The notes under the pieces were generated by a model, which was given only the letters and a program-made list of their open reading frames with translations, did not search any database and was not told the DNA's origin. Both the position numbers and the translations under genes were made by a program. Of a stretch of DNA of 64,000 bases, positions 1,684 to 50,252 are shown one piece after another; the first letter of the stretch is position 1, and each line of letters begins with the position of its first letter. Origin of the DNA: Cyanidioschyzon merolae (Eukaryota); the NCBI GenBank assembly GCA_000091205.1, contig AP006501.2. One strand, 5' to 3'.

Positions 1684-2704
1684 TATCCACGTGTAGCTTT
1701 ACGTGCTATTTCGATACGCTTGACACGAGTTTCAGATAAGATATACGCACAACAGAGCGCGTGTGTTGGAGAATCCACGCGCAGTGGCGAGCGCACGTTT
1801 CACGTTCCCGGGAGCGTTCATGAATCGCTACGCACACAGGCGCCTCCCAGTGTTTTCGAACCTGTCGCTTGTTCGCGCTTTCTGTTCATCCAGGCACAGT
1901 TTGAGCCTGAGAGACTGCCCCACAAAGTTGGATTGCATCAGCTTATTAGGTCCCGTGTCTTCAACATCACATATCGTCTGATATTGATACAGTCTCGGTT
2001 GGTGAACTCCTCGCGTTTGCAGCCTCTGGTTGAACCTAACTTTGCAGGGACTCCTCGAAGTTGTGGCCTCGATGCCGTCCAAGTCTCGTTTGCATCCCGT
2101 TGGGCAAACGCTTTTCATCGTCTGTCTCCCCTCTTCTCCGTCTTGTTCTTCCTATTCGTTAATCGCTCTTCTTTATTCGATGGTCGGTGAGAGAGGATTT
2201 TTTCGGTTTTTTTCCAGCAGCCGGCGATGGCATCCCTGCGGGATCTCCGACTACCACGTCCATGCTTCTCCCCTGGATTCTTTTTCTTCAAATGAGCGCA
2301 CTTCAAATGCATCAGCTACAAACCGCGAACATGCATTCGATGACAAGCACCTGGGTGTGAAACACAACTGAGATGAAAGACCACAAGGAGTATGCTCCTC
2401 ATTTGGCAATAGAGAGCTTGCCTTGGAACGCGAGTTGTCCCCGCAACGCCGTTCGTATTACCTGCCGTGTTGGGCTTACTGTTGAACGAGGCTTTTGTGC
2501 ATTCGTTGCGCAACTCGCGAGTGAGCAAACGCTGTCTAGCTGCCCGCTGCTATGACGCTGGTTTGGAGCTCGCTCACTCGTGCGATCAAGCAAGACCTAT
2601 CTCGGGGGAGAGTCTTGTGCACCAGGTGCGTCTCTGTAGCGGCGGACGAACGCAGCTGTGGAGAGAGCCTCGCGTGCTCTCCGAGGCGGGGTACACTCTG
2701 GACT

Positions 2705-4243: not shown

Positions 4244-5149
4244 GCAGAGCGCCTCTTGTAAATGTCGTGTTTACCTGCTGCGGTGCCGCGCTGCACACCG
4301 AGCATCCAGGGCGTTTGTTCCGCGAGGCTGCTGCATGGCCCGCGTGTTCCAGGGGCCTGCGTGGGCCGTTTCGACGCCCCGGAGGCACCAGTCCATGCGG
4401 ACTGCTCGCCAAGGCCGTCATGAACGACCTACCAGCGACAAAGGTTTCGTGCGCTCGGCACCGATGTCAAAAACGGTGCCGCAAAAACTCGCTCCTCAGA
4501 TACTAGTTTAACGTCTCGCTTCTCGCCTATTTCAGAGAAGCGAGCCTCGGCGCTGTTGCACGCTGCACAACGAACGAGTATGAAAAGTGCAGCAGATCGT
4601 ACCTGTGATCTATCGAATATCATATTCAGCGCAAAACGACGCTGCTCAATCACGCCAAACTTTTGCGTTAGCGGTGCTGCACGACATATGCACGTTTGCA
4701 GCACGACGTGACGCGGAGTCGAAATACGCAACGAATTTACGGCTGCTGTCCCTGATTCATAGCAATAAATGCATACTGACAGTACAGTTCGTGTCGCAGT
4801 CACCAAGCGAAAGTCGCATTCGTCAGCGTTCGATCAGATCACGCAGGGAGCGCCTCTCTACCAAGCGCAAGTGACCCAACCTGCCCGCTCACTTGCAAAG
4901 AACAAAGGCTATGAACCTTGAACTCTGTCTCCAAGTTGTCTCTTATCAGGCTTTTTGTGCTTGTAAGGAACGCAACGCTACGCCCAGCCTTGCCTGTGCA
5001 GTCTTTGGTGCAGGCGCACCTGCGGAAACCTCCCCAGTAGCGTAAACTGGTCGTAGCGTTCAATACACGTCGACGTATCGGGATGCCCGACAAAGAGACA
5101 CACGCTACTGCGCAAACGTTTTGTGAAACTTGTTTTCAAGCGTACACAA

Positions 5150-5420
5150 ACGTTTCTTTCTAGAGCACGTGTTCAGGTGAACAGATTCGCTTTGGTATTA
5201 AAACCGTTCTTTATAGAGCACGTGTTCAGGTGCTCACACAGGTGTCGGCAGGAACAATTCTCAAAGTGCGCAAGCAGGTTTCTCTGTGAAGCACGTGTCC
5301 AGGTGCACAGACGAGTTTCGGTACAAAGTGCGCACTTGCGTTTCTCTTCATATAAGACGTCTTCAGGTGAATAGACACGTTCTGGTATACACACACGTTT
5401 CGGTGTGCGCAAGTTTGTGT
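5150..5420. promoter_or_regulatory. ~65-bp degenerate tandem array (4 units), each unit containing a CACGTG-like (G-box/E-box) core, immediately upstream of the 5474 CDS
   Basis: Units begin 'tttct(t/c)t..agagcacgtgttcaggtg..', 'gaagcacgtgtccaggtgcacagac', 'agacgtcttcaggtgaatagacacg' and end '..gtgcgcaag'. Read directly from the sequence. Confidence 0.45.
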
Positions 5421-5473
5421 TGGAACTTTGTGCATCAAGTGGACGCTCTATTGCCGCAAAAAACATCAAACTT

Positions 5474-6241
5474 ATGACGCAGCCACCTTCTGCCAGTGCG
5501 GGTGAGGCTGATGCCTTTCAGTCGCTTGTTCAGGAAGAGCTCGGAGAGAATGCGTTCTCCACAAGCACGCCGGTGAACGATGGCACCGGGGGCGGCGACG
5601 TTTTTCTGCCAAACGAAGGCGTCGAAAGTGACGCAATCACCACGCTTCCGGTTTCTACGGCAGGCACGGTGCGTACACCTTTTGATCAAGACGAAAAAGA
5701 GTTCCCTGTTGGAAGATCATCTGTCGATGGGAAGCTATGGAAGGGCGCTGGAGGTTCGACGTTTGCGATCGAGGGCGACTCAACCAGTGGACGCGACGCT
5801 GTACAGGAGGCATCTCGGGCGCGGGCACAGCGCATCCGCGAACGCGATGAAACTGAACGAGAAGTCCGTCAAAAGTCTCGCGAAGCAGCCGTGCAAGTGT
5901 GGGAAAAGATGCACCAGGCCTGGGAGAAAACATGCCAGGAGAAACGTGTCGAGACGAAGAAACGGCAAGACAAGCTTAGTGAAGAGCGTGATGCGCTTTA
6001 TCAGGCCATGCTTGAGAATGGTGACAACAATAAGCCAGCATGGCACCTCGTTCGGGCACTGATAGAGTCTAACAGTTCGGGATTGGGAGCGGGCCGATCA
6101 CTCGGGACACCTGGCGGCATGTCTGGACCCGGTGCTGCCAGTGCTGTTTCCGAGGAAGATGGCAGTTACCGTAGCCTCCGTACTCGCATGAAGGATGTAA
6201 TCTATAGCTCCGCCAGCGAAGCGAGCCCGAAGAGTCGTTGA
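5474..6241 (+). CDS. Clathrin light chain-like protein (tentative)
   Basis: Acidic N-terminus 'GEADAFQSLVQEELGENAF' resembles the conserved CLC N-terminal motif. The central charged coiled coil 'RARAQRIRERDETEREVRQKSREAAVQVWEKMHQAWEKTCQEKRVETKKRQ' and the C-terminus 'KPAWHLVRALIES...SLRTRMKDVIY' parallel CLC 'EWERVARLCDF...DVSRMRSVLISLKQ'. The ORF-track start at 5405 is GTG; the first ATG is at 5474. Confidence 0.4.
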   Translation: MTQPPSASAGEADAFQSLVQEELGENAFSTSTPVNDGTGGGDVFLPNEGVESDAITTLPVSTAGTVRTPFDQDEKEFPVGRSSVDGKLWKGAGGSTFAIEGDSTSGRDAVQEASRARAQRIRERDETEREVRQKSREAAVQVWEKMHQAWEKTCQEKRVETKKRQDKLSEERDALYQAMLENGDNNKPAWHLVRALIESNSSGLGAGRSLGTPGGMSGPGAASAVSEEDGSYRSLRTRMKDVIYSSASEASPKSR

Positions 6242-6981
6242 TCTTACCATCGTATGTACGGTTACCGGCTGCCGCGGAAAGGTTCTCGCATAATACATGA
6301 TGGAGAGCGAGGAGAAACTCTGCGTCTGGTGTCGGTGTCGGTGTCGGTGTCGTCTGCGGCTGGAAGAGCACAACGTGCGTGGTCTTGTGTCGGGAGCAAA
6401 CGTCGGCGGACTAGCGTGTTCAAGGAACCTTTGGAATAAGGAGGCACGAGAGACGAAGCAGGTGCATTCCAAGGAATACTTCATTCTTTAGCACAGGCAA
6501 CGTATACGAGCTTGTTCTCAGATGGCACCTAGGCGGTGTCGTAAGCGTCAAACACGATCCTCCTGACAGCGACGATGCCAGTACTGTCTCTTGCAGAGCA
6601 CCTCTGACTTTGCAAGCACGTGGATTCTCTCGATAGCTCGTCCACGATCGCGACGCCTGTATATCTCTTCTCTGGGAACAGCCAGGTCAGGTCTGCTTGA
6701 GGCCGCTCTAGGACACCCCATTCTCGCAATGGCGGAGATTTCGTCACGAGTCCTGTACAACATTGCGCCATCGCTATACCGTCGACTAGTGCTATCGTAT
6801 GGGCCTCGTATCGTTAGCGAGCACTCCATCCGAACAGCCGCATGACAAGTGAAGCGACCGATCGAAAGCAGCCTTGCATGGAGCTACGAATCAGAGAAAC
6901 CCCGAGGAACACGTATACTTCCCGAAGATAACAGCACACGCCAGTTTGCCTGGTATCCTCCTTGCATGCGAAACACACGAC

Positions 6982-8463
6982 TCAGCACACACGAGATGAT
7001 GGTGCACTGCTTTTGGAAGGGCAAAGAACACAAGCAATGCGCTCGAATGCAACTTGTAGCGTTTGCGTATCCTCAACTGCCGAGAAGCAACATCTATACC
7101 ACCCGGGTTCAGGAGCATGGCAAACACGACCCGGATAGATCAACACTCGCGCTTCTCGAAAGAGTCGCTCAGCAAGTTCCAACTCCGCTTCCCAGGTCGC
7201 CTCGCGAAGAAATCTCTGCAAGCCAATCCATACGAAGAATCCAGCCTGGCTGGGATAGATGCGCACCTGCTCTGCCCCAAGACTGGTTTGAATCGCTTGA
7301 ACAGCCACCTGATACGCTTCCTCTAGTCGTCGTTGGTTTGCGACGAAAAACTTGTGCAACCATTGCTCGTCACTCAGCATTCGGCAAAGCACTGCCTGCG
7401 TATCCCGACTGGGCGACGAAAACAAACACGGTGCTCGAATCGCCTGCAACAGAGCCTGGTTCTCCGTAAAGAGAACCCCACATCGCATGCCACTCATACA
7501 GAGGTCCTTACTAAACGTCCATACGACATGCACATCGTTGCCGAGACCCTGGACGGCCAAAACGTCCGCTACGGAACGAAAACGCCCCGCATGGCTCTGG
7601 AAGACCGAGAGCGCGTACGCCTCGTCGCTCACCAGGTGCATGCCATGGGATCGACACCATTGAATGGAAAGCTCTAGTTCTTCTGTCGATAGAATATTGC
7701 CCGTTGGATTCCCGGGACTGTGCAGGAGCAACACTCGCGGTCGTTGCCCGCTCGCTCTACAGGTCCGGTCCGCAGTTTCAAGCGCATCCCTTGTCAGACG
7801 GTGGTGGTTATGGAGCGCTGTTTGTACAGGTACGGGTATGCACTTTGCACGGCAGCTCAGGTCAAAGTCAAATCCCGGATAATACGGTGCCGGAATCAAC
7901 ACGGCATCACCATCGTCACACAGGGCACTGAATACCAGGTCAAGTACAGCGCTTGCACCAACGGCACACAGGTAGTTATCGGGGTTGGCTGCACTTGCTG
8001 GGCCGCCTTTCGAAGCTGCAAATATATGCTCTCGAAAGAGTTGGCTAAGTGCCTTGCGAAAGCGTAACTCGCCGAACATGTAGTCGTACTGAAGGCACTC
8101 GTTGCGCGGCAATACGTCGCTGCGTTCCCGCTGAAACTGGGCTAAGACGGGTCCCGCACTGAGCGCGTTCTCGGCCACCAGCAGTGAGATATAACCATTA
8201 GGTTTTAATTGTGGATCGTATGCGTCCTGTTTCGCTGTAAAGGACCACTCAATCTGGCGTGGCGGTGCACGACTCGCAAGCGCCCTCCCCCGGTCTGAAA
8301 GCGTCTCTGCTGCGCTTTTCAGCACGCTACTCGTCTCTGGTTGTTGCATGCAGACACGTATACTTCGCTGTTGCTGCTGGGACGTAGCTGAACAGAGCAG
8401 CCGATCCCGACACTGAGCGCGAACGAACAAAGCTTCTCGGTAAACACCAGACTGGAGGAACAT
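6982..8463 (-). CDS. ACC-synthase-like class I/II PLP-dependent aminotransferase
   Basis: Motifs 'NGYISLLVAENALS', 'NPTGNILSTEELELSIQWCRSHGMHLVSDEAYALSVFQ' and 'SFSKDLCMSGMRCGVLFT' (Lys-containing PLP site) match aminotransferase class I/ACS-like proteins. ATG at 8461-8463. 493 aa. Confidence 0.8.
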   Translation of the reverse strand: MFLQSGVYREALFVRAQCRDRLLCSATSQQQQRSIRVCMQQPETSSVLKSAAETLSDRGRALASRAPPRQIEWSFTAKQDAYDPQLKPNGYISLLVAENALSAGPVLAQFQRERSDVLPRNECLQYDYMFGELRFRKALSQLFREHIFAASKGGPASAANPDNYLCAVGASAVLDLVFSALCDDGDAVLIPAPYYPGFDFDLSCRAKCIPVPVQTALHNHHRLTRDALETADRTCRASGQRPRVLLLHSPGNPTGNILSTEELELSIQWCRSHGMHLVSDEAYALSVFQSHAGRFRSVADVLAVQGLGNDVHVVWTFSKDLCMSGMRCGVLFTENQALLQAIRAPCLFSSPSRDTQAVLCRMLSDEQWLHKFFVANQRRLEEAYQVAVQAIQTSLGAEQVRIYPSQAGFFVWIGLQRFLREATWEAELELAERLFREARVLIYPGRVCHAPEPGWYRCCFSAVEDTQTLQVAFERIACVLCPSKSSAPSSRVC

Positions 8464-8561
8464 CCAGACTCGGCATCTCGAAGCGGTGGATCACTGCGGC
8501 CGACACTACGGCATTCTCCCGAGACGCTTCCATTGCGGTATCGAGTACGCTGATGAAGCGG

Positions 8562-9256
8562 GGAACTTGGCGACTGAGACAAAGTCTTCAACGTAGAAGC
8601 CTCATGGTGCAAGGATCGGGTGTATAAAGGTACGAGATACTGCGAACTTGGCGACTGAGGCACAGTCTTCAACGTAGAAGCCTCATGGTGCAAGGATCGG
8701 GTGTATAGAGGTACGAGATACTGCGAACTTGGCGACTGAGGCACAGTCTTCAACGTAGAAGCCTCATGGTGCAAGGGTCGGGTGTATAGAGGTACGAGAT
8801 ACTGCGAACTTGGCGACTGAGGCACAGTCTTCAACGAAGAAGCCTCATGGTGCAAGGATCGGGTGTATAAAGGTACGAGATACTGCGAACTTGGCGACTG
8901 AGGCACAGTCTTCAACGAAGAAGCCTCATGGTGCAAGGATCGGGTGTATAAAGGTACGAGATACTGCGAACTTGGTGACTGAGACACAGTCTTCAACGAA
9001 GAAGCCTCATGGTGCAAGGATCGGGTGTATAAAGGTACGAGATACTGCGAACTTGGCGACTGAGACAAAGTCTTCAACGTAGAAGCCTCATGGTGCAAGG
9101 ATCGGGTGTATAGAGGTACGAGATACTGCGAACTTGGCGACTGAGGCACAGTCTTCAACGAAGAAGCCTCATGGTGCAAGGATCGGGTGTATAAAGGTAC
9201 GAGATACTGCGAACTTGGCGACTGAGACAAAGTCTTCAACGTAGAAGCCTCATGGT
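8562..9256. repeat. 81-bp minisatellite, ~8.6 near-identical tandem units
   Basis: Unit 'gtcttcaacgtagaagcctcatggtgcaaggatcgggtgtataaaggtacgagatactgcgaacttggcgactgaggcaca'. Copies differ at only a few positions (ataaagg/atagagg; gagacaaag/gaggcacag; acgtag/acgaag). It lies in the 5' flank of the ACS-like gene. It yields a 306-aa repetitive ORF (8319..9239, minus strand) in a frame that overlaps the ACS-like CDS. Confidence 0.9.
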
Positions 9257-21816: not shown

Positions 21817-22740
21817 GGTGACGACTGGAGCGATCATTCGCTGCCGTCGCTGCTGCAGCTGATTTTTTACCTCTGACGAGGGGTTTCTATTGTATTTGGA
21901 ATCGCGTATTGCGGGATGGATATTACGATTTATGTAAGTGTTCATCAGGATGCTGAACTTCAAGTTCCATGACAGATACTTCCTTGCGGATGTACTGGTC
22001 GTTTCGGACGTTCTATCATGAGTCTAGTGCCTGCAGTACGCATACGCGTTAGCGCCGAGACCGCTGGAGCGGATATTTCATAGAGCCCGAACGGCTTTGC
22101 CATACGACTGGGGCGGGGGGTGTTGGCCCAAGGCATGATTCACTGGACATCGGGGTCGGAGCGTAGAATCATTCTGGGAGCGTGCAAGCTGTGCAGACGC
22201 ACTGCCTGTGGCAGCAGCGCGAAGCGATATACAAGGAGTACACTGCGACCAGGGCGATGCCCAGACGCTGGCTAACTGCTCGAAATCCCAGAATAAGCGG
22301 CGTTTCTGACGAGTTGCCCAGGTCTCAATAAAGCTCCTGCAACTGGGGGCCTGAAGCACAAGCCTGGCAGGCTCGTGCGACTCGCGGGACCTTACGTCCA
22401 GAAGGTAAACTCTCGACGATACGGAAACCTTTGCCCCCTTTTATCGTTTGTCGTAGAGGGGCAAAGAAAATGTTATCTCGCTACTAGTTTGTAACTAGTC
22501 TCTGTCCTTTTGGGTATATCATGCGCTCGATACGCGCACCTCCATATCTGGCAGTCACAAGACCTGACGTGTATCGCGCCGATGAAGGGAAACGCGATCC
22601 TGATCATGAGCGTGTAGCTCCAACGTACAGGACGCATTTGCGTTGAGGTCATGCGAAAGTATAGTATTTCATCCCAGATGAGTTTCGACCCTCAATGGAG
22701 TGTATTCAAGTGATTTTTCGCGGTTTATAGTAGTAGCGTT

Positions 22741-23140
22741 CAAAGAGCATTCTTTTCCAAAAACAAAAAATCCAAGGGACAGGTATCGACCTGGATGTTG
22801 GGAATCCTTAAGGGCCATCATCGTCGAATTCGACGAAGAATAACCGAAGAAGAAATCCTCTTTTCGTCGACTATCGAGCGAACATGAGCGAACGATGCGG
22901 ACGAAGAAGACCGAGAATGGATGTAGGCGAGAAAGTGTGTGCCCGACGAGACGATGACGAGACTGTAGTGGCACAGAGGGCGCGGGTTCTGGGAATCCTT
23001 GGAAAATTGCGTTCAGCCAGAGGCAATAAACGTATGGTGCTCGTGAACCGAGACTTTAACGCCGTCATCAATATCAGACGATGGGCGGTGCTGAAGACGA
23101 GACACGAGGAGCTTACGCGATCTAGCTTTGTGGAGTAGCC
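22741..23140 (+). pseudogene. Degenerate TnpB/Fanzor-like (IS200/IS605 OrfB-type RuvC) remnant, copy 1
   Basis: The in-frame translation ends '...KRMVLVNRDFNAVINIRRWAVL', matching the TnpB/Fanzor/Cas12 RuvC-III signature (D/N)RDxNAAxNI(x)RR. About 35 codons upstream in the same frame is 'KIQGTGIDLDVGNP' (RuvC-I 'GIDLG'-like), followed by a stop, which suggests an internally deleted relic. It is homologous to a second copy at ~42430-42970. Confidence 0.4.
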
Positions 23141-23204
23141 TCTCATGGGCGATGTGTACAGGGAGAAGCTGAAACCGATAGCAGGTCGCCTGTGTAGATA
23201 GGCT

Positions 23205-23257
23205 GGGAGGCGTCTGCACGTGGGTGTCAGTTTACGATCTCGAGGCGACGCCTCCAG
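23205..23257. other. 9-bp-stem inverted repeat (hairpin) ~70 bp downstream of the TnpB-like C-terminus
   Basis: 'ggaggcgtc' (23207-23215) pairs with 'gacgcctcc' (23247-23255); the 31-nt loop contains a cacgtg palindrome. Confidence 0.5.
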
Positions 23258-24119
23258 TGGTGCGGAAAGGCCGTTCTGTCTGCGCTAATGCGAGACGCGT
23301 GGTGGTTACCTGGGCCCTGCTTTTCCCTTATAGGCTATTACGTGAGCCCTTGGGCACCTTCAGCACAGAAACGTTTCCAGTCTGCAACGTGGCGGGATAA
23401 GCGAGTCGAGCTCGGAGCGCTCCGTGTACAATCACGCTGTCTCCTTTCGCAAGTTACGATGCGTACCTGTTTCGCGGCTGGATTTTTGGCACCAAAAGCG
23501 CTGTAGGTACCGGGTTCAGGTACAGTTCCATCTCGCCAGATGCTGTTGGTGTCGAAGGATCGGCTTCAGGAGGAGGTAAGCGTCCGGCATTGCGTACCAA
23601 GAGGTCTGCGACGAGGCGTTCATCGCGCAGTTCGTCGCATCAGCAGGCGGGCACTGCTTGTAATCGACTGCCTGAGCGCTTCATTGAGACGATTCATAAA
23701 AGCCATCGTCGCCTTCAGATATCACTCTGAGAACTGTTTGGACGCTGCAGAACGATTCTCGGGATGCGCGAAACATGCCCAGAGTCGGCACCTGGCATGG
23801 GGTAGGGTCCTGGTCTGTTGTGGTGTAGGATCCTTAAATCTAACCAGGTTTCTGGCGATGCGCATCCGCTTCTGATGACCACGAAAGAGGCCTCGTTCGC
23901 TTCACTAGCGCATGTGTGTGTTCGGCAAGTCCCAGTCAAAATGCCCAACAGGTATAGAGGCTTGCTCATTCCAAAGGAACAGCGGTTATCGAGTCTACAG
24001 TGGGCGCTCGCGCCACCGCGGGCTCATTCTCACACGCTCACCGCAGAGGTTCGTTTCCTAACGAGCAACTCGCGCGTCTGCAGGCGCATTCTCCAACGAG
24101 ATGCCGACCCTGAAAACGT

Positions 24120-24345
24120 ATATTTCGCTGTATTCCAAGTCTGGAATCATCCGAGGCACTAGATGCGAAGGCAGCCGGTTTCGGGAAGTGCTCGTCCCAG
24201 TCTGATACCGGAAATCCCGCTGTATTCCAGGTCTGGAATCATCCGAGGCACTAGATGCGAAGGCATCCGGTTTCGGGAAGTGGTAGTGCCTCCATCCGAT
24301 CGTATATCTCGTTGTACCCCAGGTCTGTAATCATCCAGATCACGA
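24120..24345. repeat. ~94-bp tandem repeat, 2 full units plus a partial third
   Basis: 'gctgtattccaagtctggaatcatccgaggcactagatgcgaaggcagccggtttcgggaagtg' recurs at 24221 with 2-3 mismatches. A degenerate third unit follows ('gttgtaccccaggtctgtaatcatccagatcac'). Confidence 0.85.
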
Positions 24346-24562
24346 CATACATAGGCATTATGTGTCGGGTACTCGACATTCCGCCTTGCTCGTGCTTCGC
24401 GCTGGCATACGATACAAATGAAGCACAGCCGCAGTTGCGCAGTCGCGGTTGCCAGGCCCGCGTTGCGTACGGCTGCGATGCCCGCCGGAGGACACAGCCT
24501 TGTGCTACGCTGGGCTCGTGCGGCGTTGCGCCCGTATACTGTTGGGCTCCGTTGGAGACGGT

Positions 24563-30489: not shown

Positions 30490-31640
30490 GCGGTTGACAT
30501 GGACTATCGAACGTCTCGCTCTGTTCCTGCTTTTCGGGGGCTTCCGAAGTTGTTTTAGATGCACATCATCGATTGAGGACCTGCAGCAAAGAGTGCTGAC
30601 AGGTTCATACGTAGTTCAAAGACGCTCAGCGGGTCTTTTCGGAGTGGCTGTTTCGATGCGGTGCAGCTGGGCGGATTCGCTCCGTCTCGGGGATCGAGAT
30701 GATTCGCGACGCTCGCGAACCAGGAATCGTGAAATCACGGATAGCATGATCCAGTTCGTACGGCCAAGGCTCTACGTTTCACTTTTCCTCAGGTCTAGCA
30801 CGCTTCGAGATTAAGATCTTGATGTTTCATGGCAAAGATTTGGCGCAGGTTTTCGCGCTGCTGGATGCATAAGGAGAAATGCTCGACATCTTCCATGGAT
30901 GACTTGTTCGCGAGTGCGTACCAAAAGTTGGCTGTATTTGTCGCATTCAATCATGGATTATTTTCGAAATATGAACCCTCAGTTTGTGGCCGTTGGCGAA
31001 ACGGATTCCACGGTAGCACGATATCTCTCACAGGATCTGCCACCAGACGCTCCCATCTATCGTGCTTTTCATAGCTAGGTATCTTGGACTGGGGTTTGAG
31101 GTATCGCATCGACCTCATTCAATGGAGAATGCGTCGTCGCTTTGCACGAAGGAGGCCTGAACGGATCGAAACTTTTCGACTTGTTCTCCAGGCGGGATTT
31201 TCATTCCGATGCTTGTTTCATGACGGACGACATCGCTTGCCGCAGATTCTCCTATCGAATGGAAGAGCGTGCGCCTGCTTGTGCATCTGCCAGAGCAGTC
31301 GTCAATGGGATCGCCCAGGTAATGCCAGTGCTCGTCTGGTGCGGTACTGGGCGCGGAAACGAATTAGGGTATCGGCAGGAGCGCTCTGTAACCGTCCAGG
31401 GCATCTGGTGAGCTATGGAGTGCGCCTCGACGCAATACGGGGCGGTCCACAGGGTAGCAGGTGTGATGTACGGATCGAAACGCCTGACAACCGCCATGCA
31501 TGACCGTTGGGAAAGGAGCACTCGGGCCATAAACAGAGAGAATGACAATGACGAGCGAGGCGTAGACTGCAACCACCGCCTGTGCATGACGTGCGTAGAC
31601 GACAACCCGAAGCAGTGCCATCGAGACCCAAACGCTGACA
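30490..31640. repeat. Dispersed repeat family R1, copy A (~1.1 kb, degenerate)
   Basis: It shares ordered homology islands with 48395-49450: 'ctcgctctgttcctgcYtttc', 'ttagatgYRca', 'gatgattcgcRacgc', the ~95-bp block 'cttgttctcYag.c.gga.att.ca..c.g.tgcttgtttcat....aca.catc.cttgc..aatc.c.t.atc.aatgga.gag', 'ggcatctggYgagc.atg.g', and 'ccgcctRtgcatgacRtgcgtWgacRacaRcccgRaagc'. Spacing between islands is conserved (~1.0-1.06 kb). Confidence 0.7.
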
Positions 31641-33062
31641 TTCACATTACAAGGGTGCTGACAACGGAGCTGCCGGGAAACGAGACACCGGGCATAAATG
31701 GAACCGCAAGTCAGAGAGAGGAATACGAAGCAATCGCTTAAAGAAGCCCGTGAACACTGACGATAATCACCCTGAGAACAGACACAAACTTTACTGCCAA
31801 CGACCGCGTTGGACGACTTGCTTCCTTCTTGACTGATATTCATGCACCATCCAAATGATCCTACACCCGAAGGAGGAAATCGTGTTGGCAATATCTGAAA
31901 TCCCTGTTTTGCTGGAACGATTCGAAACCTGTAGGAAATCGGGCCGCGAACACTGCCTGTCCGCACTTGTTTTTCTTTTTTCGTATGACGCAGCGTCGCG
32001 CATCTTGTCGCGGGTCACCGAATACGCGATCGCGATCAGCATCAAAACGAGCATCTATGATACTGCACCGGATTTTCAAATAACACGGCTCACATTGCAG
32101 TCTTCGCTTGGGCATAATGGTTCCCTGGAACGACCATCCGCGTGCCGAGCGTACCATGGGTGCCCAGAGCGGCGCTTAGAATGCTGGTTCGTATGCTGCA
32201 CCAAGACGAAACGACTTTGGCGTACTCTTGAGGTCCTCGGCTCGAGGGCGAACCCCCGGGTACCTCGTCGTCAGGCAACGGAGCCATGACCACTCGATTT
32301 GCGACGCGGTCGTAGCTGCTCTGACACGCTGACGCATCGAACGGAGCGTATGGTAGCGATCCCAGTGCCAATGGAACCGAAGCTGCTCGAGTGCCGCGCG
32401 ACTACGCGAGCTTTCATGGTGGACCACGGGCTGCTGGTGCGCGCTGTTGTTTTCGGGCCCGAAGAGAATTCATTGATTGGTGCATTGCGTTCCTTTTTAA
32501 CAACGAGTCCGTTCCTCTATATTTCCAGCGAGAATTGGCGCTGCGAGATGGTTTCTTTTGAACAGCTCTCTTGAATCAGGCCGAGCTCGGTTGGCCCAAT
32601 CGCTCCCCGGAAAATGAAGGACGCTTCGATGCGGCCCCCGGTTCTGGTGCTGCGGTGAAATCGTCTGCGGCTGCAGAACCGGCCGTAGACACCATTGTGA
32701 AGCCCAGTAACCAGCGCTGGCGTCGTTCAAAACTCAATGGACATAAAGATACAGGGTCGTGTCACCGGTCTGATGGTAGTGCTTTCCAAAATGCGTCGCG
32801 AGGTCGAGACTCACCTGTAGCAACTCCTTGGCATCACGAGAAGCATGGATCTCGCGGAGCGTCTGGCCTCGGGTGACGGCTGTAACGGACGCACATCCAT
32901 CGCAACTGGTGCAGATGGATCCAGCGGACGCGTATCCTTGGCCTGAGGCCATCGGCGCGCGCCTCGCACTGTTGCCGAGTCATCCTCGGCATCGGTATGC
33001 ATGTCCACTGACGTCCGGGTCTTGAGGGCGAACCTGTGCGGCAGTACGCGCAGCACAACCGC

Positions 33063-34875: not shown

Positions 34876-36023
34876 TTTCTTCTTTGGTGTTCCCACTGTT
34901 TTTCTTGGACCATACATTGGAGTCGTCGTGAGCCTTCCCTGTTCATGAGAGAACGATTGGAGGCTATCCTCGGCGAGGAGCCGCTTCGTTCAAACCTGCA
35001 TCGATCTTGCCCAGGTACTCTTGTAATGCTTTGGAGCAGATATAGTGATTCGGTCGAAGCAGATGCGCGTGCTGGGGTGGTATAGTCCAAATGCACACTC
35101 GGCACTTGGTCGCCATCGCATCTATCTAAGGTCCATTTAGTTCACGTCCAAGCGCTAGGGAACCGGGCGTTGGGCTCTGTACCGAGCATCCTGCCATGAT
35201 TCGTATCGTCCTGCTGGCAGCGGTCTGTATACACGAAGCGATTGCGGGGTTCAGGGCGGACCACGAGGCGCCCCAGGTCGCTGCCTGTACGTTACACGTC
35301 CCGAATGCCGTGGTACAGCTGCATGCGGACACCGCGAGGTCCGGCAGGATGTACGATACACGTCCTGAATACCCTGGTACAGCTGAATACGGACATCGCG
35401 GGGTCAGACAGCAGCATGCGCGCGAGCGCTATGCACCTCTTCATCTTGATGATCATCTCGCCCAGATGCTCGATAGCAACCGGCGTCGATACTAGGCAAA
35501 CTCTCCGGTTACAGGCGGCTTTCGGAATTTCCTTCCCATAGGCAAGCGCCACGAGCGGTCGCGGAAACGCTGTGAATGGCCGTGAGTGACCATGACCCGG
35601 AACTTGGATGCATCGATATCCATCTCTCGACGATCTGCCTAGGCACTGACTTGTTGCATTCTTTCAGCGAATGCTTCCGGGCACGGCGCCAGCAATACGA
35701 CAGCATCAATGAGTACGAGCCTCGCGATGCAGTCTTCATAACGATGCCCCTCTTGATCCCTGTATTATGGATCTCCGAGGTCCATCCACTGAAGCTCCGT
35801 TCCGCATTGCCAGCACCGATCTCGATGACTGGCCTTGAAGGTATTTTGAAAAAGCGCGGGGGTGCCGGACCGCCCTCAAACATTCCTCGACAAGCGCGCG
35901 CTCCCGATGCGCACGATCGCTCCAAAGCCGAAACGACGATGTGCGTACTCGCGTTTCTCCTTCGAAACCGGCTGGGACTTGCATGTGCGCTCCCAATCGC
36001 TTGAGCGGCATCATCCCCAGCAT

Positions 36024-39104: not shown

Positions 39105-39469
39105 GAGCTTGACAAGCTCGTGTTCCCAGCGTCCCAGGGTATGCTGGCTGCGGGATCACGGTGAGCGCAGCGCGCCGCGCAGCGTCGGTGCGGGCGCTGC
39201 ATGTAGACAGAACGGCTTTTCTAGACTGCAGAGGGCGTTGGCTCGAGGGGTGCTTCACCCGACGTAGAGTCGGAATTCATCATCATGATACGATCAGAAA
39301 GTCTGCGGATGCAGGCTTGTCTTCGCTGCACGGCACGCTGGAGAAACTTGGTTGTTAGGATGAATTCTGGGAGCCGCCTCTCTCCTTCGTGCTCCTGCAA
39401 GGAATGCGTTGTTGTTGGTTGGCAATGCGGGTTTGTGGTTGACACCCACCCACAGTGGGTAGGCGCAGA

Positions 39470-39940
39470 AAGCGCACTGTGCCCGTGTACGCATCCGCTT
39501 CGCTGGACCTGCTGCCTAGAAGGTAGCATGTGAGTTTGTTCGCCACTCATGAGCGCTGAGACTCGGTTAGCGGACCATCAGTTGCCAGTGCTACACTCAA
39601 AGTGATTGTCCGGCCTTCGCCTATCACGGTGATGCCCAGCTGCTGGTGTCCTTCAAGCAGCTCGCTGCGCTCCTGCTTCCAGCGCGGGCACTGTAAGCCT
39701 AACTATGTCAGCGTGTCGGGGATCTCGTTTCCACAGCAGGGACAGTGTGATTCCCAGAGTGATTCCAGTGTTCCTATGCGGCTTAGAGCCGGTGCTGCTA
39801 GTCAGAAGCCACCAACGCGGATTTTCGCGAGCCACTGAGTACCTCGAGCAAGTCCCGGGAATTCCAGCGCCTCCCACCAGTACTTGCATGTGTATGCGAG
39901 GTTGTAGTTCCGGTATAGAGTCAAGCCAGCGTCTCGACGC
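39470..39940. repeat. Dispersed repeat family R2, copy b (~470 bp), direct orientation relative to copy a
   Basis: See copy a. Also 'cgcttcgctggacctgctgcctagaaggtagcatgtgagtttgttcgccactcatgagcgctgagactcggttagcggacc' versus 34431 'cgtttcgctggactccgcacctaaaaggcagaatatgagtttggtggccaccagcgagcgttgcgactcggttggagaccc'. Confidence 0.8.
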
Positions 39941-40552
39941 TTGCGCTTATCCGCGTCTGCTGTAGACCACGGATGCGATTTCTGGACACAAAATTATGGC
40001 TTGGAGGCAAGTGCTCTAGCTTTGGACATGGCTATGTACGCACAGACGCCGCCCCTTGTCATGAATTGCAGGATTCTTTGTGTTCCGGGTAAGCGCGATC
40101 CTCACCATAACGTACCGGTCACTCCACTCCCGGGTTCAGCGGTATCTGCAATGACGCGGATACCGGGACAGCACGCTGCACAACAATGCGACGCATCGCT
40201 GTTGGTATCTGTCGACAGCCAGTGCTGCGCATGCACTACTTGTATGAGCGCTCGCAAAATGAAAGCCACCCCCTGCGTCAGCCGGATACGGCCACGGGAT
40301 GTACTGTTTAGGAAAAGAGGTCGTTCGTATCCGGTTATGGTTCTCCATCCGATCTGGGTCGCGATCGCAGCTTCCAGAATTCCGCGCCCTACAAAGCTAT
40401 GATGTCCTGGAATCGCTGGAATGAATTTCGTCAATTGGCTCCACAGCACAAAACCAATCGTTTTTTTCAGCATCCCGCAGCACGATCGAACCATTCGAAG
40501 ATACCGTACAGATACACCTGTCTGGTGCCGAACGTGTCCGAGACGTTACGCC

Positions 40553-41284: not shown

Positions 41285-42429
41285 CGATAAGCAGTTGCTG
41301 CGTGCGATCGCTGCAACGCTACACCAACGTACAGAGGTGAACGTCTATCATAGAATCTGACGCTACACACCAGTGCAGAGACTGATGCGTCCCAGGCGTT
41401 CGCGCGTTCGATCTCGAAAACGATGACTGTTATGTGCTGTTATATCCGTAGATGTCCAGCCAAAATTTTTTCAACTCGAGACTGCTCCACCCATTCTGTG
41501 GTGGATGGCAGGCGATCGACTCCACAATGCAATGTATCGTACAGATCATAGACGAAATCTCTCTAGGATGTATTCTGTGCGAAACTGTGCAAGGAGGACT
41601 GTATTTCTTGTTCAGGTGAGTCATATCATAGTGCTTAGATGGTTGAGGATTACTGAAAGGCACATGTAGATGCGCTTTGCGCAAAAAATATTATGAAAGA
41701 CTGCTCATCGTCAATGATAGAAAACGAACCGTTGATCAGCATATGGAAAGTAAAACCAACGATCGTAGACACAGCAAGTGTCTCTGTTTCTCAACAGCTT
41801 GTTCACGTGGTACTCAAAACACTGGGGTACAGTCACAACAAAGTCCGCGTTCACGCACGACTCTCTTCCACAGAAATCGCAGCGACAGCGTTCCTGAAAC
41901 GTCGCGATCGCTATGATACAGAGAAACGTCGGTTATTTTTTTCAGTGTATGAGACTTGCTTCAGAGGATACGGTCGGAACGTCCATGGGTATTTGCAGAG
42001 AGGGAGCCCGTTGTGTCTATGACCGAACTCGAAGAGATACAGGTTATCATCTTCTATTCTAGCAGCAGTGGATCCATTTGGTGGCCTCAGTTTCGCTTGT
42101 AAAGAAGTCTCGTAGAACAGCAGCAATGCTGTCGACTCGTTAAAGACTTTTCCCCGGACCTCTGGCGACGTTCTTCTACTGTACAACGTAGAATTTCAGC
42201 ATTCACTTTGCGTTTGGGCTTTTCCGGATTCTATCGGGGTGCAGCTGCTTTTCACTCTTCCGTCCTCTCCGAGATTCAACGCTATAAAGAGGAGTGGTTT
42301 CTATGGTGAAACGCGTTGATCGGTCCATTGTACGAATCGCCGAGGCGTTCAGGACACGGTGACGCCAGGGCACATTTTGTCTGTCTGCCGCGAGTGCCTC
42401 TCCCGCTGCGAAATTCCTCACCCGAGTGC

Positions 42430-42970
42430 TTAAAGAGGTGCATTCATTTTCAAAAATAAAAATCCAAGAGAAGGCTATACACATGCAAACTGGGTATTCA
42501 GGAGTGCCATCATCACTGGATTTGACGAAGAAAACAGTAAACAAGGCCAATCCCAGAGGAACAGGAGAAGACCAAGAAGCACAAGCCGGAGGCCTGACGT
42601 CAATGGCCGCAAGAAGGACCACAGTACAACGAGATCGTAGTGAAAACCTGTCTTTTCGGGTATTTCGAGGATCCGTGCAAACAAAAGTTGCGAAATGGCC
42701 ATCAGAAACCGTGTCGAGTCGTGCGCCATGAGTTTTATGGACGCCTCTTCAGGCCGAATGCATTTGGTTAAGGTCATGCAACGCGACGTGACGGGCATCA
42801 AAATGGGCGAGGTTCCAGTGGAGTCTCTCGACCAGATCTTCATTCGCCACTTGATGTTTCGCACAGGGCAAACGTCGAGGAGAAATGAACGAGTGCATGC
42901 CATTCACGAAAATGACGCCGAATATCGCTTCGACGGTGCTCGACACAAGCTTGACTCGTGTATTTAAGAA
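42430..42970 (+). pseudogene. Degenerate TnpB/Fanzor-like remnant, copy 2 (frameshifted), inside an AT-richer island
   Basis: Nucleotide homology to copy 1: 'cattcattttcaaaaataaaaatccaag' versus 'cattcttttccaaaaacaaaaaatccaag', and 'gccatcatcactggatttgacgaagaaaacagtaaacaagg' versus 'gccatcatcgtcgaattcgacgaagaataaccgaagaag'. At the peptide level 'GRMHLVKVMQRDVTGIKMG' parallels copy 1 'NKRMVLVNRDFNAVINIRR'. The reading frame is split across ORFs 42426..42731 and 42695..42967. Confidence 0.35.
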
Positions 42971-44728
42971 TACGGGGCGATCAAGTACCTCATGAACCCG
43001 AAGAACCATTTGACTATGACCCTTGAACGCATCATCATACGCTTCATGTTTGCACTCTACCCGGGCCACTCTCGCATCGGGACATGGGCCATCATCATCG
43101 GCATTACGAACGATCGCCAGCATGAACGGGAGATCGAATTCATCGACAAGAAGACACCGCGCAGGAGAAAGAATGAGGACTCTGTGATCTGTGCCGCTAT
43201 TCAAGAGCACCGTGCGGTCTTGGGGCTGGTCAATCCAGCAGAATAGGTATCCGATATGAAAAAGAAAGATGTTATCCTCTCATCCTGCGTTATTTCGTGT
43301 TTCTGAGTCGAGAACTCGAATGCAAAGCCGAAATATAGCAGAGTGTGGGAAAAATAGTGACGGGGAAACGGAAGGCTGCGCTTCTGGGGAAACGCTTCAA
43401 CGTGGTTCCAATGTGCAACATCAAGTCACATATCGTGACTATCTACTCCAGAGTCCTGCACGGCATCATGAGGCAGCTCTACCCGGAGTTCAATCGACGG
43501 AAGATAGAGCTCACCGGTGAAAACCGGGAGACTCATTGGAAGAGTATCTTCGATTGCAAACGTCTGAAAACGAGCAAGAAAAAGGTATTCGCGGGCAGGA
43601 TCGAGACCGATGGGGTCTCCATACGTGTACACTACCAGCGGTTGAAGGCGGGTCGTCCTATTGTGTCCACGGCTTCGCCGTGGCGAACCATGAAGATGAG
43701 AAGGAGGTGGATCCTGCGACGCAGTGACCTATCCCTGGATAGGTCACTGCGTCACTATCAACCCGAAGCACAAACCGAACACGAATATCCATGCACACAG
43801 ACGTCGCCAACGTTGCATTCTAACAGCAAGCATCCGAAGCGCAACCTCTTCATCATCATCGTAACACCCCGCGGTGTCTCGATTCGACACAGACCAGGCG
43901 TCGTTTTCATACTGGCGGTTGAGCGCAGCGACAGAGGCTTTTATGTTGCGTGCGAGACGCACCGAGGCCCGCAGCACCCATCCCCAGGGCGTGTACTGCA
44001 AAGCGAACTGTAAACCGCGCTGCGAGGCATCCGATGCGAAGCACCCGAACACAGGCCCCCGGCACCTGAGCACCCTGGAATCCGCTCAAATATGTCCAGT
44101 TCGAATCGGTACCTCTGGGTGCGCTCGCACCGACACCATGTACCCGTTGGGCAGCAGGATCCCCGCAGACACTCGTTTACGACCAGTATCTACGATAAAC
44201 GCGCCATCGACGAAAAAAAGCAGTTTCAGAGATACAGTGTGTTCCGCTGTTGAACGTTGCAGCGACAAGCAGGATGCACAGTGCGGAGATAGCGCGGATG
44301 CCTCGTCGTCATCGTCGTCGTCGCCGTCGCCGTTACCTGCCCTATGCAGACAACAACAAGCACCGTACAACATCGAGACTCGCACACACCAGCGAGCGGT
44401 GTGTCTTCTGGTTTCACACACCCATACGCGCGCTGTGCTGCACGGTCATCGCCTTCGCGCCGTTCGCCAGGGACCCCAGACAAGCCGCGGTTGCTGCGGG
44501 AGCGCTCCCGTGTCCGCTGCAGTGGGTCAGCGTCCGCCAATCGTCCCGCAAGCATCCGCTTTTGGCGGTTTTTTCGATGCTCCCCTGCTGTCCGTTTAAG
44601 CAGGGGCCTCCAATGCATCATCCATTCCACCCAGTTACACTCTTTTCGTGAAAACGAGGTGTTCTTCATTATACCTGCATCCAGGGCACGTGCAACGGCC
44701 GCTCGACACCTTGTAGCTACGCAGATAC

Positions 44729-46876
44729 CTATGACACAAACTGACGGCGATCTTGTTCGTCACGCTTCCCATGCGGGTTGCTCGCCCGAAATCGTTGCCC
44801 TGAAGCAAGCCGTTTCCGAATGAGGTCTTTCAGGCGATCGCGATTCTTCCACTCATCTCCAAATCCGCCACCGCCTCCGCGTCGTCGAATTTTCTTCGCT
44901 CTCTCGAGGACGTCGAGACAGATGCGCGGCGGTGCACTGAAGCCGAAGCTTTTCGCCACCGCCGCAATGTCGAGCTCGTGCACATTGAATACATCTTTCA
45001 TGGAGTGACTCGCATACGCTTGGAGGTAGGAACGGAATCCGTCCCGCGCAGATTTCTGAAGATAGTAATTGCCTTCAACTAATTTTTCCAGCTGGGTCTG
45101 AATATCAGCAAGTTTCTCTTTGGGAAACTCGTACTCGTTCAGAGGCACTTTGGCATCGCGCAGATGCTGCAGAAACCCGACTTCCGATGGCAACAGAAAG
45201 AGAATCGCCCGTCCGCGACCATGAACGCCTCGAGCGGTGCGCCCCACCCGGTGGATGTACTCTTTCGGCTCGTCCGGTGGGTCGTACTGCACAATCCAGT
45301 CGACGGCGGGAATATCGAGACCACGCGCAGCTACGTCCGTGCATAAGAGTGTGGCGTGCTCACGCCGAGCGAACTCGAAGAACGTCGATGTTCGCTTGCT
45401 CTGTTTCTGTTTCCCGTGCAGATCCAGAACAGGGACGTCTATATAGTTCAAAAGCTCGGCATAGAATTTCACTCCGTTGCAGGAAGACATGAAGACGATG
45501 ATCTTCTTGCGCTGATTGCGCTTCAAGAACGTGAACAGCAAGCGGAAACGCTGCTCGCTGGGCACAATCGTGAAGCCCTGCTGCAGGCCCTCAACGGTGG
45601 CAACAGGCTGTTCTGCGTCGATACCCAGATGAAGCGGTTTCTGCTGAAAACTTACTTTGGCCAGATCCTCCACTTTGGTTGTTTGAGTTGCGGAAAAGAG
45701 CATTGTCTGCCGGGTCTTTGGCAGTATTCGCAGAATTTCATGCATCTCCTCTTCAAATCCGATTTCCAAGCAGCGATCCGCTTCATCAATCACGAGAAAG
45801 CGAAGGTGCTCAAAAACAAAGCCCCGTGTGGACTGTAGATGGTCCAGCAAACGCCCAGGCGTCGCAACGAGAATATTTGTACCGTTGATGAGCTTTTCAG
45901 CTTCGGTTCGGCGGTTTGCACCACCCATGACGATCGCTCGGGTCTGGTGATGATGTGAAGCAAGATCGTGAAGCACCCCAAAGATCTGCATCGCCAGCTC
46001 GCGGGTAGGCGCGATGATGATCGCACCAGTGCCATTACGCGGCATCCACTTGGCCTTGTACAGCAATTCAACAATGGGGATCAGAAATGCGAGCGTCTTA
46101 CCGGAACCTGTTCGCGCAGAAGCGAGAATATCTCGACCAGACAGCGCTAGCGGGATCGCTCGCGCCTGAATCTCTGTCATCCTTGCGAAACCCATTTCCT
46201 CAATGCCTCGTAGCGTCGGCTCGGATAGCGGCAGTGAATCGAAACGATGAGGTGTCAGAAGGCCTGAACTCGGTTTCGGTTGCTCCTGTTCCGAGGCGTG
46301 CTCCGACGATAAGCTCTGTAACGCAGGAGACGACTTCTGTGTCACCTCTGGGCAGGGTCTGGCCAGAGGCTCCATCTCGTGCACTGTTGCTCGCGAGGAT
46401 GCAACCTCTTCATCTGCGGGCGTTCTTGCTGCAGCGTTCTGAAGCTCGGTTTCCATCACCGGAGCTGGCGTCCGCAACTCTGCACGTTGTAACTCACATA
46501 TCGAAACCCCCGCGTCTTCATTCGGGTTCCCAGCAGCTGCGTTGGTTGACGCGGAGGCCGACTTCACCGACTCGGAGCAGCGTTCGCGCTTGGCGTGCAA
46601 CTGATCGGTGAAAGTCGCAGCCTGCGTGCGCGTTCTGGATGAACCGTAAGCGCCAGCGTTCCTCGCGACGACTTGTGCCGCACCAGAAGCAGGCCTGCTC
46701 GCGGTGCTCGTCAAGCGCTCCGTCGCGCTAACAGAAGATACGTCAGCGTCGCGAGCGAGCAAGTCGCTGTGACAAGCACGAGGGCGCTCTCGCGCCGATC
46801 GCTTCCGGCTCGCGACTACGTCCGCCTGCTGCTTCCGTTTGCTGTTCTCGCTTGCGTGCCGGATCCGACTTTTCAT
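44729..46876 (-). CDS. DDX18: DEAD-box ATP-dependent RNA helicase, DDX18/Has1 subfamily (ribosome biogenesis)
   Basis: Q-motif/motif I '[35 protein letters not shown]', Ia 'APTRELAMQ', 'TPGRLLDHL', DEAD box '[17 protein letters not shown]', SAT 'LFSATQT', 'ARGLDIP', '[11 protein letters not shown]'. It is collinear with Has1. The ORF-track start at 46960 is GTG; the first ATG is at 46874-46876. Confidence 0.9.
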
Positions 46877-48142: not shown

Positions 48143-48394
48143 CGTCCGAGCTAGGCACAACTTGACGCGCACGGTACGGAACAGTGATTGCGTTCCAGGC
48201 TGCAATCAGATGAGGCTGCTCGTTTAGCCACACCTGGCGAAGAATTGGGTTGAGGTTGCTCTGCGGGATCTTTTAACGCTACTTTCAATCCGTGGGCTTC
48301 CTGTATCACGAAACATTACCGACCATCCGCGAAGCGCTGGTCGGCATCGTGTGTGCGAACGATGCGCGACACGCGTATGAGACGAAAATGGAAC

Positions 48395-49450
48395 ACTGAA
48401 TAGCTCGCTCTGTTCCTGCCTTTCAATTTTTTGGCTTTCTTAGATGTGCAGCAATAGGTGCTTATGGATGCATATCTAGTTTAAGGATGCTCGCTGCTCT
48501 ATTCGTAGTGGCGCCGTCCACTCGGTGGCGCTGGAATTCGTTACGTCACCGGAATCAAGATGATTCGCAACGCCTTTGAATGAGGGTTCGTAAAAGTACC
48601 GATATCTTTATACAATGCATACATATGAGACTCCGATACTCAACTTAACTCTCGAGTAGTGTGCTCAGATCGCGCATTCTGCGAGTTTTCGATCTATCTG
48701 TTTCAAGCAACTCGCGGGCGGGGGATTTCGTGCTGCTAGACGGAAGGGGAAATGTGCTCGAGGTTGTCCCTAGACAACATGTTGAAAAACTCCTTCTTAA
48801 GGTTCACTGAACTTGTCACATCAGAAAATCGATTTCATTCGAAAGAGAAAATGTCCTCCGGTCATAGGCCATGAGCGAGACGGCGTTCCATAGCAGCACT
48901 ACGTATATAACAGAATACGCTCGGAGAAGCCCACGGGTCTTCTGTTCTGTACGATAGGGGATGGTGGACTCGGACTTTAGCCACCACAACGATCGCTTGG
49001 AATGGAATGTGCGAAACTGCTATGCACGAGGGCGGCCTAGACGCATCCAAATTAGTCGTCTTGTTCTCTAGCCTGGATATTCCACCGGGTGCTTGTTTCA
49101 TCGAGAACAGCATCACTTGCTACAAATCCCTTATCAAATGGAACAGATTGCGCTTCATCATAGGGTACTAGACTGAATGCGGAAACCAAGCAGAGCATTC
49201 GCGGGTGCCTGCGGTGGTCTTCAAAGGCATCTGGCGAGCAATGAGGGACACGTTTCCGCGGCACGTTCGAGTTCTCGGAGGAGGACGAGGAGGAGGAGGA
49301 CGATGAGGAGGGCATGCGACGAAAACGCGGGAATATATGACAACACCCAGGTGTCATAGCTCTGAAGCGCGTCCCCGAGTTGTCCACAAAGGAGTTTGTA
49401 GATCGCAGCTTCCGCCTATGCATGACATGCGTTGACAACAGCCGGAAGCG
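48395..49450. repeat. Dispersed repeat family R1, copy B
   Basis: See copy A. The minus-strand ORF 49052..49438 starts 'MSTHVMHRRKLRST', paralleling 'SSTHVMHRRWLQST' in the copy-A minus-strand ORF 31252..31641. Confidence 0.7.
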
Positions 49451-50252
49451 ACTTTATCGAGAATTTCACACTGTCATCAGCATCTTGCGACGGATGACTA
49501 CAGAGCTGGGGGTAAACGAGCGAGGGTCGTACTGAAAACCGGAAATGAGCGTGAGGAGATGAAGCCAGTGCGGGGAAAAAATCGCAAATGCTGATGCTGG
49601 TATCAGTGAGAAGAGACCCAGACTTTTACATACGCGCCCGTTTCAACAAAGCGGACCTTTTCATCTCTATACTGACACAGGTTTAGATCCGCGCATATGA
49701 GGCCGCGGAGCAGGTTGCTGACTTTGTTGCTGACTCGTCCACGCTACGGCTTGTGGAGGCAGCATAAACGATCCGCTCTGCGAAACGATCCGCGACGCCA
49801 CCTGTGCGTCTCAGGCACCAAGTAGCAGGTTCACAACACGGTGCCGAGCCCGTGGGGCATCTGCGGCTTGCCACTCGGCCAATGTATGACGCCAACTGTA
49901 CGTTCAACGAGTGATGCCAAACGTATCCGACATCGGATGTCTGCGCACCGGTAGTTCTCTTTGATAGGGCAGCGCAACACGGGTCGCACCAGCGAGCGGA
50001 CGTTCATCCGGTGTACATATGCAAGTGCGCGAATGTGGAGGTTGCAGTTAGAGGCACGTTCATTTCACAAGCCACGGAGCTATGCGCACAGATGGTGTAA
50101 TTCTCCTGGTACAAAAGATACGGACCGGAACTGTCCGTAACATATCCTTCAGATGCATGCAATTACACGACAAACGAAGCGCCGTCATCCGTCGTGATTC
50201 ATCTTCATTCATGCACAAGGTCTTCGCGCTCTTTTCGCGCTTTCGTAGGCGC

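Follow-up and report, generated by a model that had tools for sequence, protein, structure and literature searches.

Judging from its sequence, the stretch at about 42430-43724 (+) of the window, which is the whole 64,000-nucleotide piece of DNA analysed here, is almost certainly a fossil fragment of CMe-1A, a Fanzor1 transposable element of Cyanidioschyzon merolae. CMe-1A is a eukaryotic TnpB-like element described by Bao and Jurka (2013, Mob DNA 4:12; PMC3627910), who reported about 150 genome copies that share about 80% identity with a consensus of about 3 kb (3169 bp), and the family has been known since that year. A preliminary description of 42430-42970 had read it as a second, frameshifted copy of a TnpB-like element and had placed its motif in a repeat family. 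Both readings are borne out, the first by a match to the Fanzor1 element at 82% over 1209 nt that is broken by stops and indels, and the second by the three copies in the window and the 150 or so in the genome (PMC3627910). For annotation, the interval 42430-43724 is best masked as a fossil of the CMe-1A (Fanzor1) transposon and treated as neither a gene nor a nuclease-motif locus.

Seven long open reading frames (ORFs) of the window match proteins of C. merolae 10D exactly (BAM82963 to BAM82982), which identifies the window as nuclear DNA of C. merolae, a red alga with few introns and a high gene density. The three window copies, designated R0 (2386-1837, -), R1 (21908-23225, +) and R2 (~42430-43724, +), were mapped against the 3169-bp CMe-1A consensus DNA and the 734-aa CMe-1 protein, both from the supplements of PMC3627910, in which the CMe-1 ORF occupies consensus 906-3110. 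A CMe-1 profile run on the six-frame translation of the window recovered R0, R1 and R2 only. An Rfam scan of the entire window gave zero families at gathering score, and the ORFs of R1 and R2 had no meaningful match in Pfam or NCBIfam.

Extent and decay of the R2 fragment

R2 belongs to the CMe-1A family by descent, its similarity being extended and its divergence that usual among family members (~80% identity). Blastn aligns consensus 955-2162 with window 42527-43724 (82% over 1209 nt, E=0), and weaker but clear homology continues back to about 42430 (consensus ~860). Tblastn of CMe-1 recovers residues 18-404 at 62-71% amino-acid identity as three matches in two frames, the first two given in Table 1 and the third covering residues 245-404 at 43204-43680. 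The copy therefore runs on to 43724, well past the limit of 42970 given in the preliminary description. That description had also split the copy over two ORFs; 42695-42967 does lie in the Fanzor frame (residues 74-163), but 42426-42731 is in a frame other than that of the match to residues 18-72. Both 42695-42967 and a further ORF at 42992-43246, together with the peptide SSGRMHLVKVMQRDVTGIKMG, fall in the segment of residues 74-262.

Table 1. Parts of the three CMe-1A copies located in the window
Feature	Position	Strand	Evidence and remarks
R2 leader end, ~45 nt (consensus ~860-905)	42430..42476	+	blastn, consensus 871-896 = 42438-42462; four-way MAFFT (consensus, R0, R1, R2)
R2 Fanzor1 codons 1-17	42477..42528	+	ATG changed to ATA at 42477-42479; 1-nt insertion relative to consensus
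R2 CMe-1 residues 18-72, from the NLS-like K/R-rich stretch	42529..42693	+	tblastn 62%; stops at codons 21 (TAA) and 40 (TGA)
R2 CMe-1 residues 74-262, after the +1 insertion at 42696	42698..43264	+	tblastn 71%, 189 aa; stops at codons 163 and 256
HMM matches within the R2 residues 74-262 part	42689-42958, 42971-43243	+	profile search
R2 CMe-1 residues ~245-419, with the conserved 'IETDGV' block	43204..43724	+	HMM match 43363-43683, E 1.5e-43
R1 leader (consensus 37-896) and first ~19 codons (to consensus ~962)	21908..22843	+	blastn, MAFFT
R1 linker, ~100 nt, marking the deletion of consensus ~962-2780; common to R0	22844..22937	+	R0/R1 alignment
R1 CMe-1 residues 625-729, with RuvC-III 'VNRDFNAVINIRR'	22938..23225	+	tblastn E 7e-17; HMM E 9e-12
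R0, third copy, with R1-like internal deletion	1837..2386	-	self-blastn; 8-nt deletion within the RuvC-III motif

The consensus derives from the same host genome as R2, and the divergence of R2 agrees with the ~80% that Bao and Jurka give for the ~150 copies. R2 differs from the complete, two-ended element of about 3.2 kb in being a fragment with a destroyed ORF. It contains only consensus ~860-2162 and keeps about 419 of the 734 codons plus about 45 bp of leader, the first ~860 bp of the element having been lost. The flanks at 41300-42430 and 43725-44750 hold no consensus 1-860 or 2163-3169, only scattered fragments shorter than 20 nt. At its other end R2 reaches no further than consensus 2162 (about residue 419). 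The RuvC-I block (GADPG) comes after residue 420, so that the copy lacks RuvC-I, RuvC-II and RuvC-III. No window copy has all three blocks; none is present in R2, and R1 and R0 keep only the third. R2 is also without the 3' ~1 kb of the element, where a guide-RNA region would be predicted for CMe-1A by analogy with characterized Fanzors.

The AT-richer island noted around the copy is confirmed, with a GC content of 0.495 at 42001-43000 against 0.5635 (~56%) for the window. The CMe-1A consensus has a GC content of 0.52 and R2 one of 0.51, and the AT-richer setting is explained by the composition of the element itself.

A palindrome, GACGCAGTGACCTATCC ct GGATAGGTCACTGCGTC, lies across the 3' breakpoint of R2 at 43718-43753, with 17-nt arms and a 2-nt spacer, and self-blastn returns it as an inverted match of 36 nt at 94%. 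The left arm opens with the last 7 element bases of R2 (GACGCAG), and the right arm repeats these inverted. The palindrome may be a scar left when the R2 break was repaired through a hairpin or fold-back.

Relative to the consensus ORF, R2 carries five in-frame stops (codons 21, 40, 163, 256 and 289) and indels of +1 (42696), -7 (43263), -1 (43348), -2 (43355) and -1 (43677), with one further indel inside the first 17 codons. With an ATA in place of the start, five stops and at least five indels, it holds no uninterrupted ORF with a start codon, and by its sequence it is a pseudogene. Substitutions against the consensus amount to 0.171, 0.133 and 0.200 per site at the three codon positions, and the changed codons comprise 117 nonsynonymous and 45 synonymous ones. 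Changes are slightly more frequent at third than at second codon positions, which could reflect a short spell of constraint on R2 or subfamily differences from the consensus.

Four metagenome contigs carry the orthologous locus in strains that are 99% identical, with the gene order of the window (HPT, a 243-aa ORF, R2, the HAS1 helicase and L22). Between the window and a 161-kb contig, R2 shows 8.5 differences per kb, HAS1 2.2, HPT 3.8 and intergenic DNA 7-24. The R2 value rests on 11 differences, a small count, and fits neutral drift; at 99% identity the orthologous loci are too close for dN/dS. The 161-kb contig lacks the 1-nt deletion at 43677, and this frameshift is therefore polymorphic between strains. 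Within the locus, 10D and the metagenome strain diverge fastest in the intergenic stretches at 39105-40552 and 41285-42429, which flank the 243-aa ORF and show 23-25 differences per kb, compared with 2-4 per kb in genes.

R2 is thus missing the opening ~860 bp of CMe-1A and all that follows from the RuvC-I block on, the 3' end included. With no start codon and with its stops and frameshifts, it would encode nothing and would drift as intergenic DNA, persisting as filler between the 243-aa ORF and HAS1. The fragment is probably without activity.

A different fate would be exaptation, with the ORFs at 42695-42967 and/or 42992-43246 retained by the host as small proteins. Both are open in the ancestral frame, both have been gene-called in several metagenome contigs, and the locus is kept in related strains. 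However, these gene calls are automatic, and retention among strains that are 99% identical is uninformative. The exact 90-aa ORF at 42695-42967 and its 79-aa versions occur only as automatic gene calls on JGI metagenome contigs, and the 90-aa ORF is not in the NCBI or UniRef C. merolae proteomes. Stops separate the ORFs from one another, neither ORF matches Pfam or NCBIfam, the divergence of R2 per kb is 2-4 times that of neighboring genes, and its changes relative to the consensus are mostly nonsynonymous. We consider exaptation very improbable beside the reading of R2 as a transposon fossil.

Overlap with the other window copies

The preliminary description had aligned 42440-42560 with 22755-22880. 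A 94-nt match is real (22747-22840 against 42440-42532, 72% identity with one gap; blastn E 1e-8 pairwise and 4e-6 in a whole-window self-search), but the copies part at consensus ~962 and the similarity does not reach 22880 or 42560. The shared block corresponds to consensus ~866-962, comprising the end of the leader and the first ~19 codons, and the similarity arises because the locus at 22747-22840 is another copy of the family. Beyond this leader and start-codon segment of about 95 nt, R1 and R2 have nothing in common. Their remainders are complementary, R1 consisting of the 5' leader and the C-terminal ~105 codons and R2 of codons ~18-419. A three-way MAFFT alignment of R0, R1 and R2 continues past the 94-nt block, and we rejected this continuation as forced, with no blastn or tblastx support. 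Within the shared 95 nt, R1 and R2 are 77% identical to each other and either is 70% identical to the consensus, which suggests that the published consensus may not be their exact ancestor.

R1 and R0 are internally deleted copies that keep both ends of the element, with the leader and ~19 codons followed by the last ~105 codons and the 3' region. In R1, consensus 37-896 corresponds to window 21908-22770 at 79% identity. R1 thereby carries the 5' region represented by TE-N2_CMe, a second repeat of 635 bp and about 70 copies that shares 95% identity with the opening 635 bp of CMe-1A (PMC3627910); R2 has no part of this TE-N2_CMe region. In R0, consensus 790-969 corresponds to 2381-2199 and CMe-1 residues 682-726 to 1971-1837. 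Self-blastn matches the two copies at 1908-2381 against 23145-22664 (65.6% over 492 nt, E 7e-22), and their alignment is unbroken across the deletion junction, the biggest gap being 8 nt. The linker that R1 and R0 share has no significant match to the CMe-1A consensus, the best local score being reached by 183 of 300 shuffles.

A tentative reading, less likely than not, is that this architecture at two unlinked loci marks a non-autonomous CMe-1 derivative that spread after its deletion and kept the 3' region in which a Fanzor guide RNA would lie. R2 would in contrast be a dead end, left by a break at the palindrome that a hairpin mediated. If true, the derivative would be evidence for mobilization in trans of an element without TIR, TSD or transposase.

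The mutual similarity of R1 and R2 in the 95-nt overlap, slightly closer than that of either to the consensus, could also be taken to mean that one is a local segmental duplicate of the other and not an independent insertion. Only those ~95 nt are held in common, though, the rest of each copy representing non-overlapping parts of the element, and their flanks have no similarity. The internal deletion of R1 is common to R0 and not to R2. Local duplication is accordingly most unlikely, and we retain the reading of R2 as a separate CMe-1A fragment.

The peptide parallel drawn in the preliminary description is not borne out. It had been claimed that a diverged RuvC-III peptide survives in R2 (42750-42812) as a homologue of RGNKRMVLVNRDFNAVINIRR in R1, and that its conservation at the amino-acid level pointed to former coding. 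Both peptides do contain 'RM.LV' and 'RD', and the copies in which they lie belong to a single element family. Their BLOSUM62 local score of 15, however, is reached by 1987 of 5000 shuffles (40%), and tblastx at E<=50 gives no HSP between the two positions. Each peptide has a place of its own in CMe-1, the R2 peptide at residues 90-108 and the R1 peptide at residues 662-681, and 0 of 1000 shuffles reach either score. The R2 peptide is thus N-terminal in a copy that ends near residue 419, before RuvC-I, and that has no C-terminal Fanzor sequence near it in the profile search. The placement in full-length CMe-1 refutes RuvC-III homology between these peptides. From the sequences, the family assignment is right and the peptide evidence offered for it is a chance resemblance of two different domains; a short motif match can mislead even where the family assignment holds.

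The idea that R1 and R2 resemble each other only by a chance low-complexity match can be dismissed, for although the shared block opens with an A-rich run (CAAAAATAAAAATCC), the 94-nt match extends beyond it with a whole-window E of 4e-6, and the adjoining 1.2 kb is 82% identical to the published consensus, so that the likeness is not confined to short low-complexity sequence.

The CMe-1A family and characterized Fanzor1 proteins

Bao and Jurka found no TIRs for CMe-1A and could not determine its TSDs; the element has no transposase (PMC3627910). They aligned three RuvC-like blocks (DPG; DE(F/Y)xTS; NRDxNAAxN) with the D-E-D motif of TnpB (PMC3627910). Against this background, three differently decayed copies in one window, of an element whose mobility mechanism is unclassified, have modest wider value.

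Our database search with CMe-1 yielded 43 relatives, of which 41 come from JGI metagenomes and the other two from ENA and Logan, and they include near-full-length proteins at 31-43% identity. In an alignment of nine of these relatives, the DPG and DEFRT blocks and the RD of NRDFNAAINI recur in the full-length members, as do several N-terminal blocks that are still visible in R2.

The family profile relates CMe-1 to an experimentally characterized Fanzor1. Searched against the PDB, it matches 8GKH (Spizellomyces punctatus Fanzor1, SpuFz1) with E 2.2e-5 over about 360 positions, from 'TDG' through the DPG and DE(F/Y)xTS blocks to the NRD block, and the Guillardia theta Fanzor1 (9CER, GtFz1) with E 0.056; no other chain was returned at E<=10. 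The likeness to these proteins of solved structure is remote and needs a profile to be seen, single-sequence PDB searches with the R1 ORF, the ORF at 43345-44013 and the CMe-1 consensus giving no Fanzor or TnpB match. In characterized Fanzors, a guide RNA (fRNA / omega-RNA) is encoded at the 3' end of the element (PMC10530073). From these reports and the relationship to 8GKH, we infer by analogy that the intact CMe-1A ancestor probably encoded an RNA-guided DNA endonuclease with a guide RNA at the 3' end of the element. Unlike SpuFz1 and GtFz1, the R2 fragment holds zero nuclease blocks and so could not work as these enzymes do.

The family also bears some likeness to the TnpB proteins of IS200/IS605 and IS607 (PF07282, Cas12f1-like TNB), in that the ancestral C-terminal 'NRDFNAAINI' resembles the RuvC-III end of the TNB/OrfB domain. 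In contrast to TnpB proper, this likeness is sub-threshold; it is found in the consensus and R1 and is absent from the region under study. At the RDFNAAINI block, PF07282 matches consensus CMe-1 and the environmental protein P0117 described below with E 0.2-0.5 and 11-12 bits against a cut-off of 26.3 bits. None reaches the PF07282 gathering score, and the window ORFs have no match to it. CMe-1A further differs from the bacterial IS200/IS605 and IS607 elements in encoding no TnpA.

Environmental relatives and other repeats

A near-complete CMe-1A copy, 85-89% identical to the consensus, lies on a 49-kb contig (L005) from JGI metagenome 3300050362. At 4001-6259 it has an uninterrupted 752-aa Fanzor1 ORF, P0117, with the DPG, DEFRTS and NRDFNAAINI blocks. 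This may be a Fanzor1 that is active in environmental relatives of C. merolae, and the apparently intact protein is a candidate nuclease from a thermoacidophilic eukaryote. The same copy contains a tandem triplication of consensus 2117-2195, the segment in which R2 breaks.

Pieces of consensus ~192-294 recur on their own in the window at 74-83% identity, at 23239-23284 (-), 32183-32247 (+) and 39187-39286 (+); the first of these is inverted and lies 14 nt past the 3' end of R1. The isolated pieces may be parts of TE-N2_CMe or of another repeat with the same module. A 719-nt stretch at 39209-39927 is 88.6% identical to positions 2648-3365 of contig L005, inside the 5' region of the environmental CMe-1A copy. 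The CMe-1A consensus has no counterpart to this stretch, which has the look of a distinct and younger repeat family joined to the consensus 195-294 module.

We also observed a dispersed, decayed repeat pair at 30582-31274 and 48447-49153 (63.5% over 718 nt, with stops in all frames), which extends to about 30500-31700 and 48390-49520. It was considered as a Fanzor relic and rejected, having no similarity to R2, the consensus or the Fanzor profile. Among tandem repeats, an array at 8563-9256 has an 81-nt period and about 8.5 copies that are 96-98% identical, and it overlaps the ORF at 8319-9239 (-). Smaller tandem duplications occur at 24110-24369 (92-nt period, 78%) and 35286-35411 (64-nt period, 84%).
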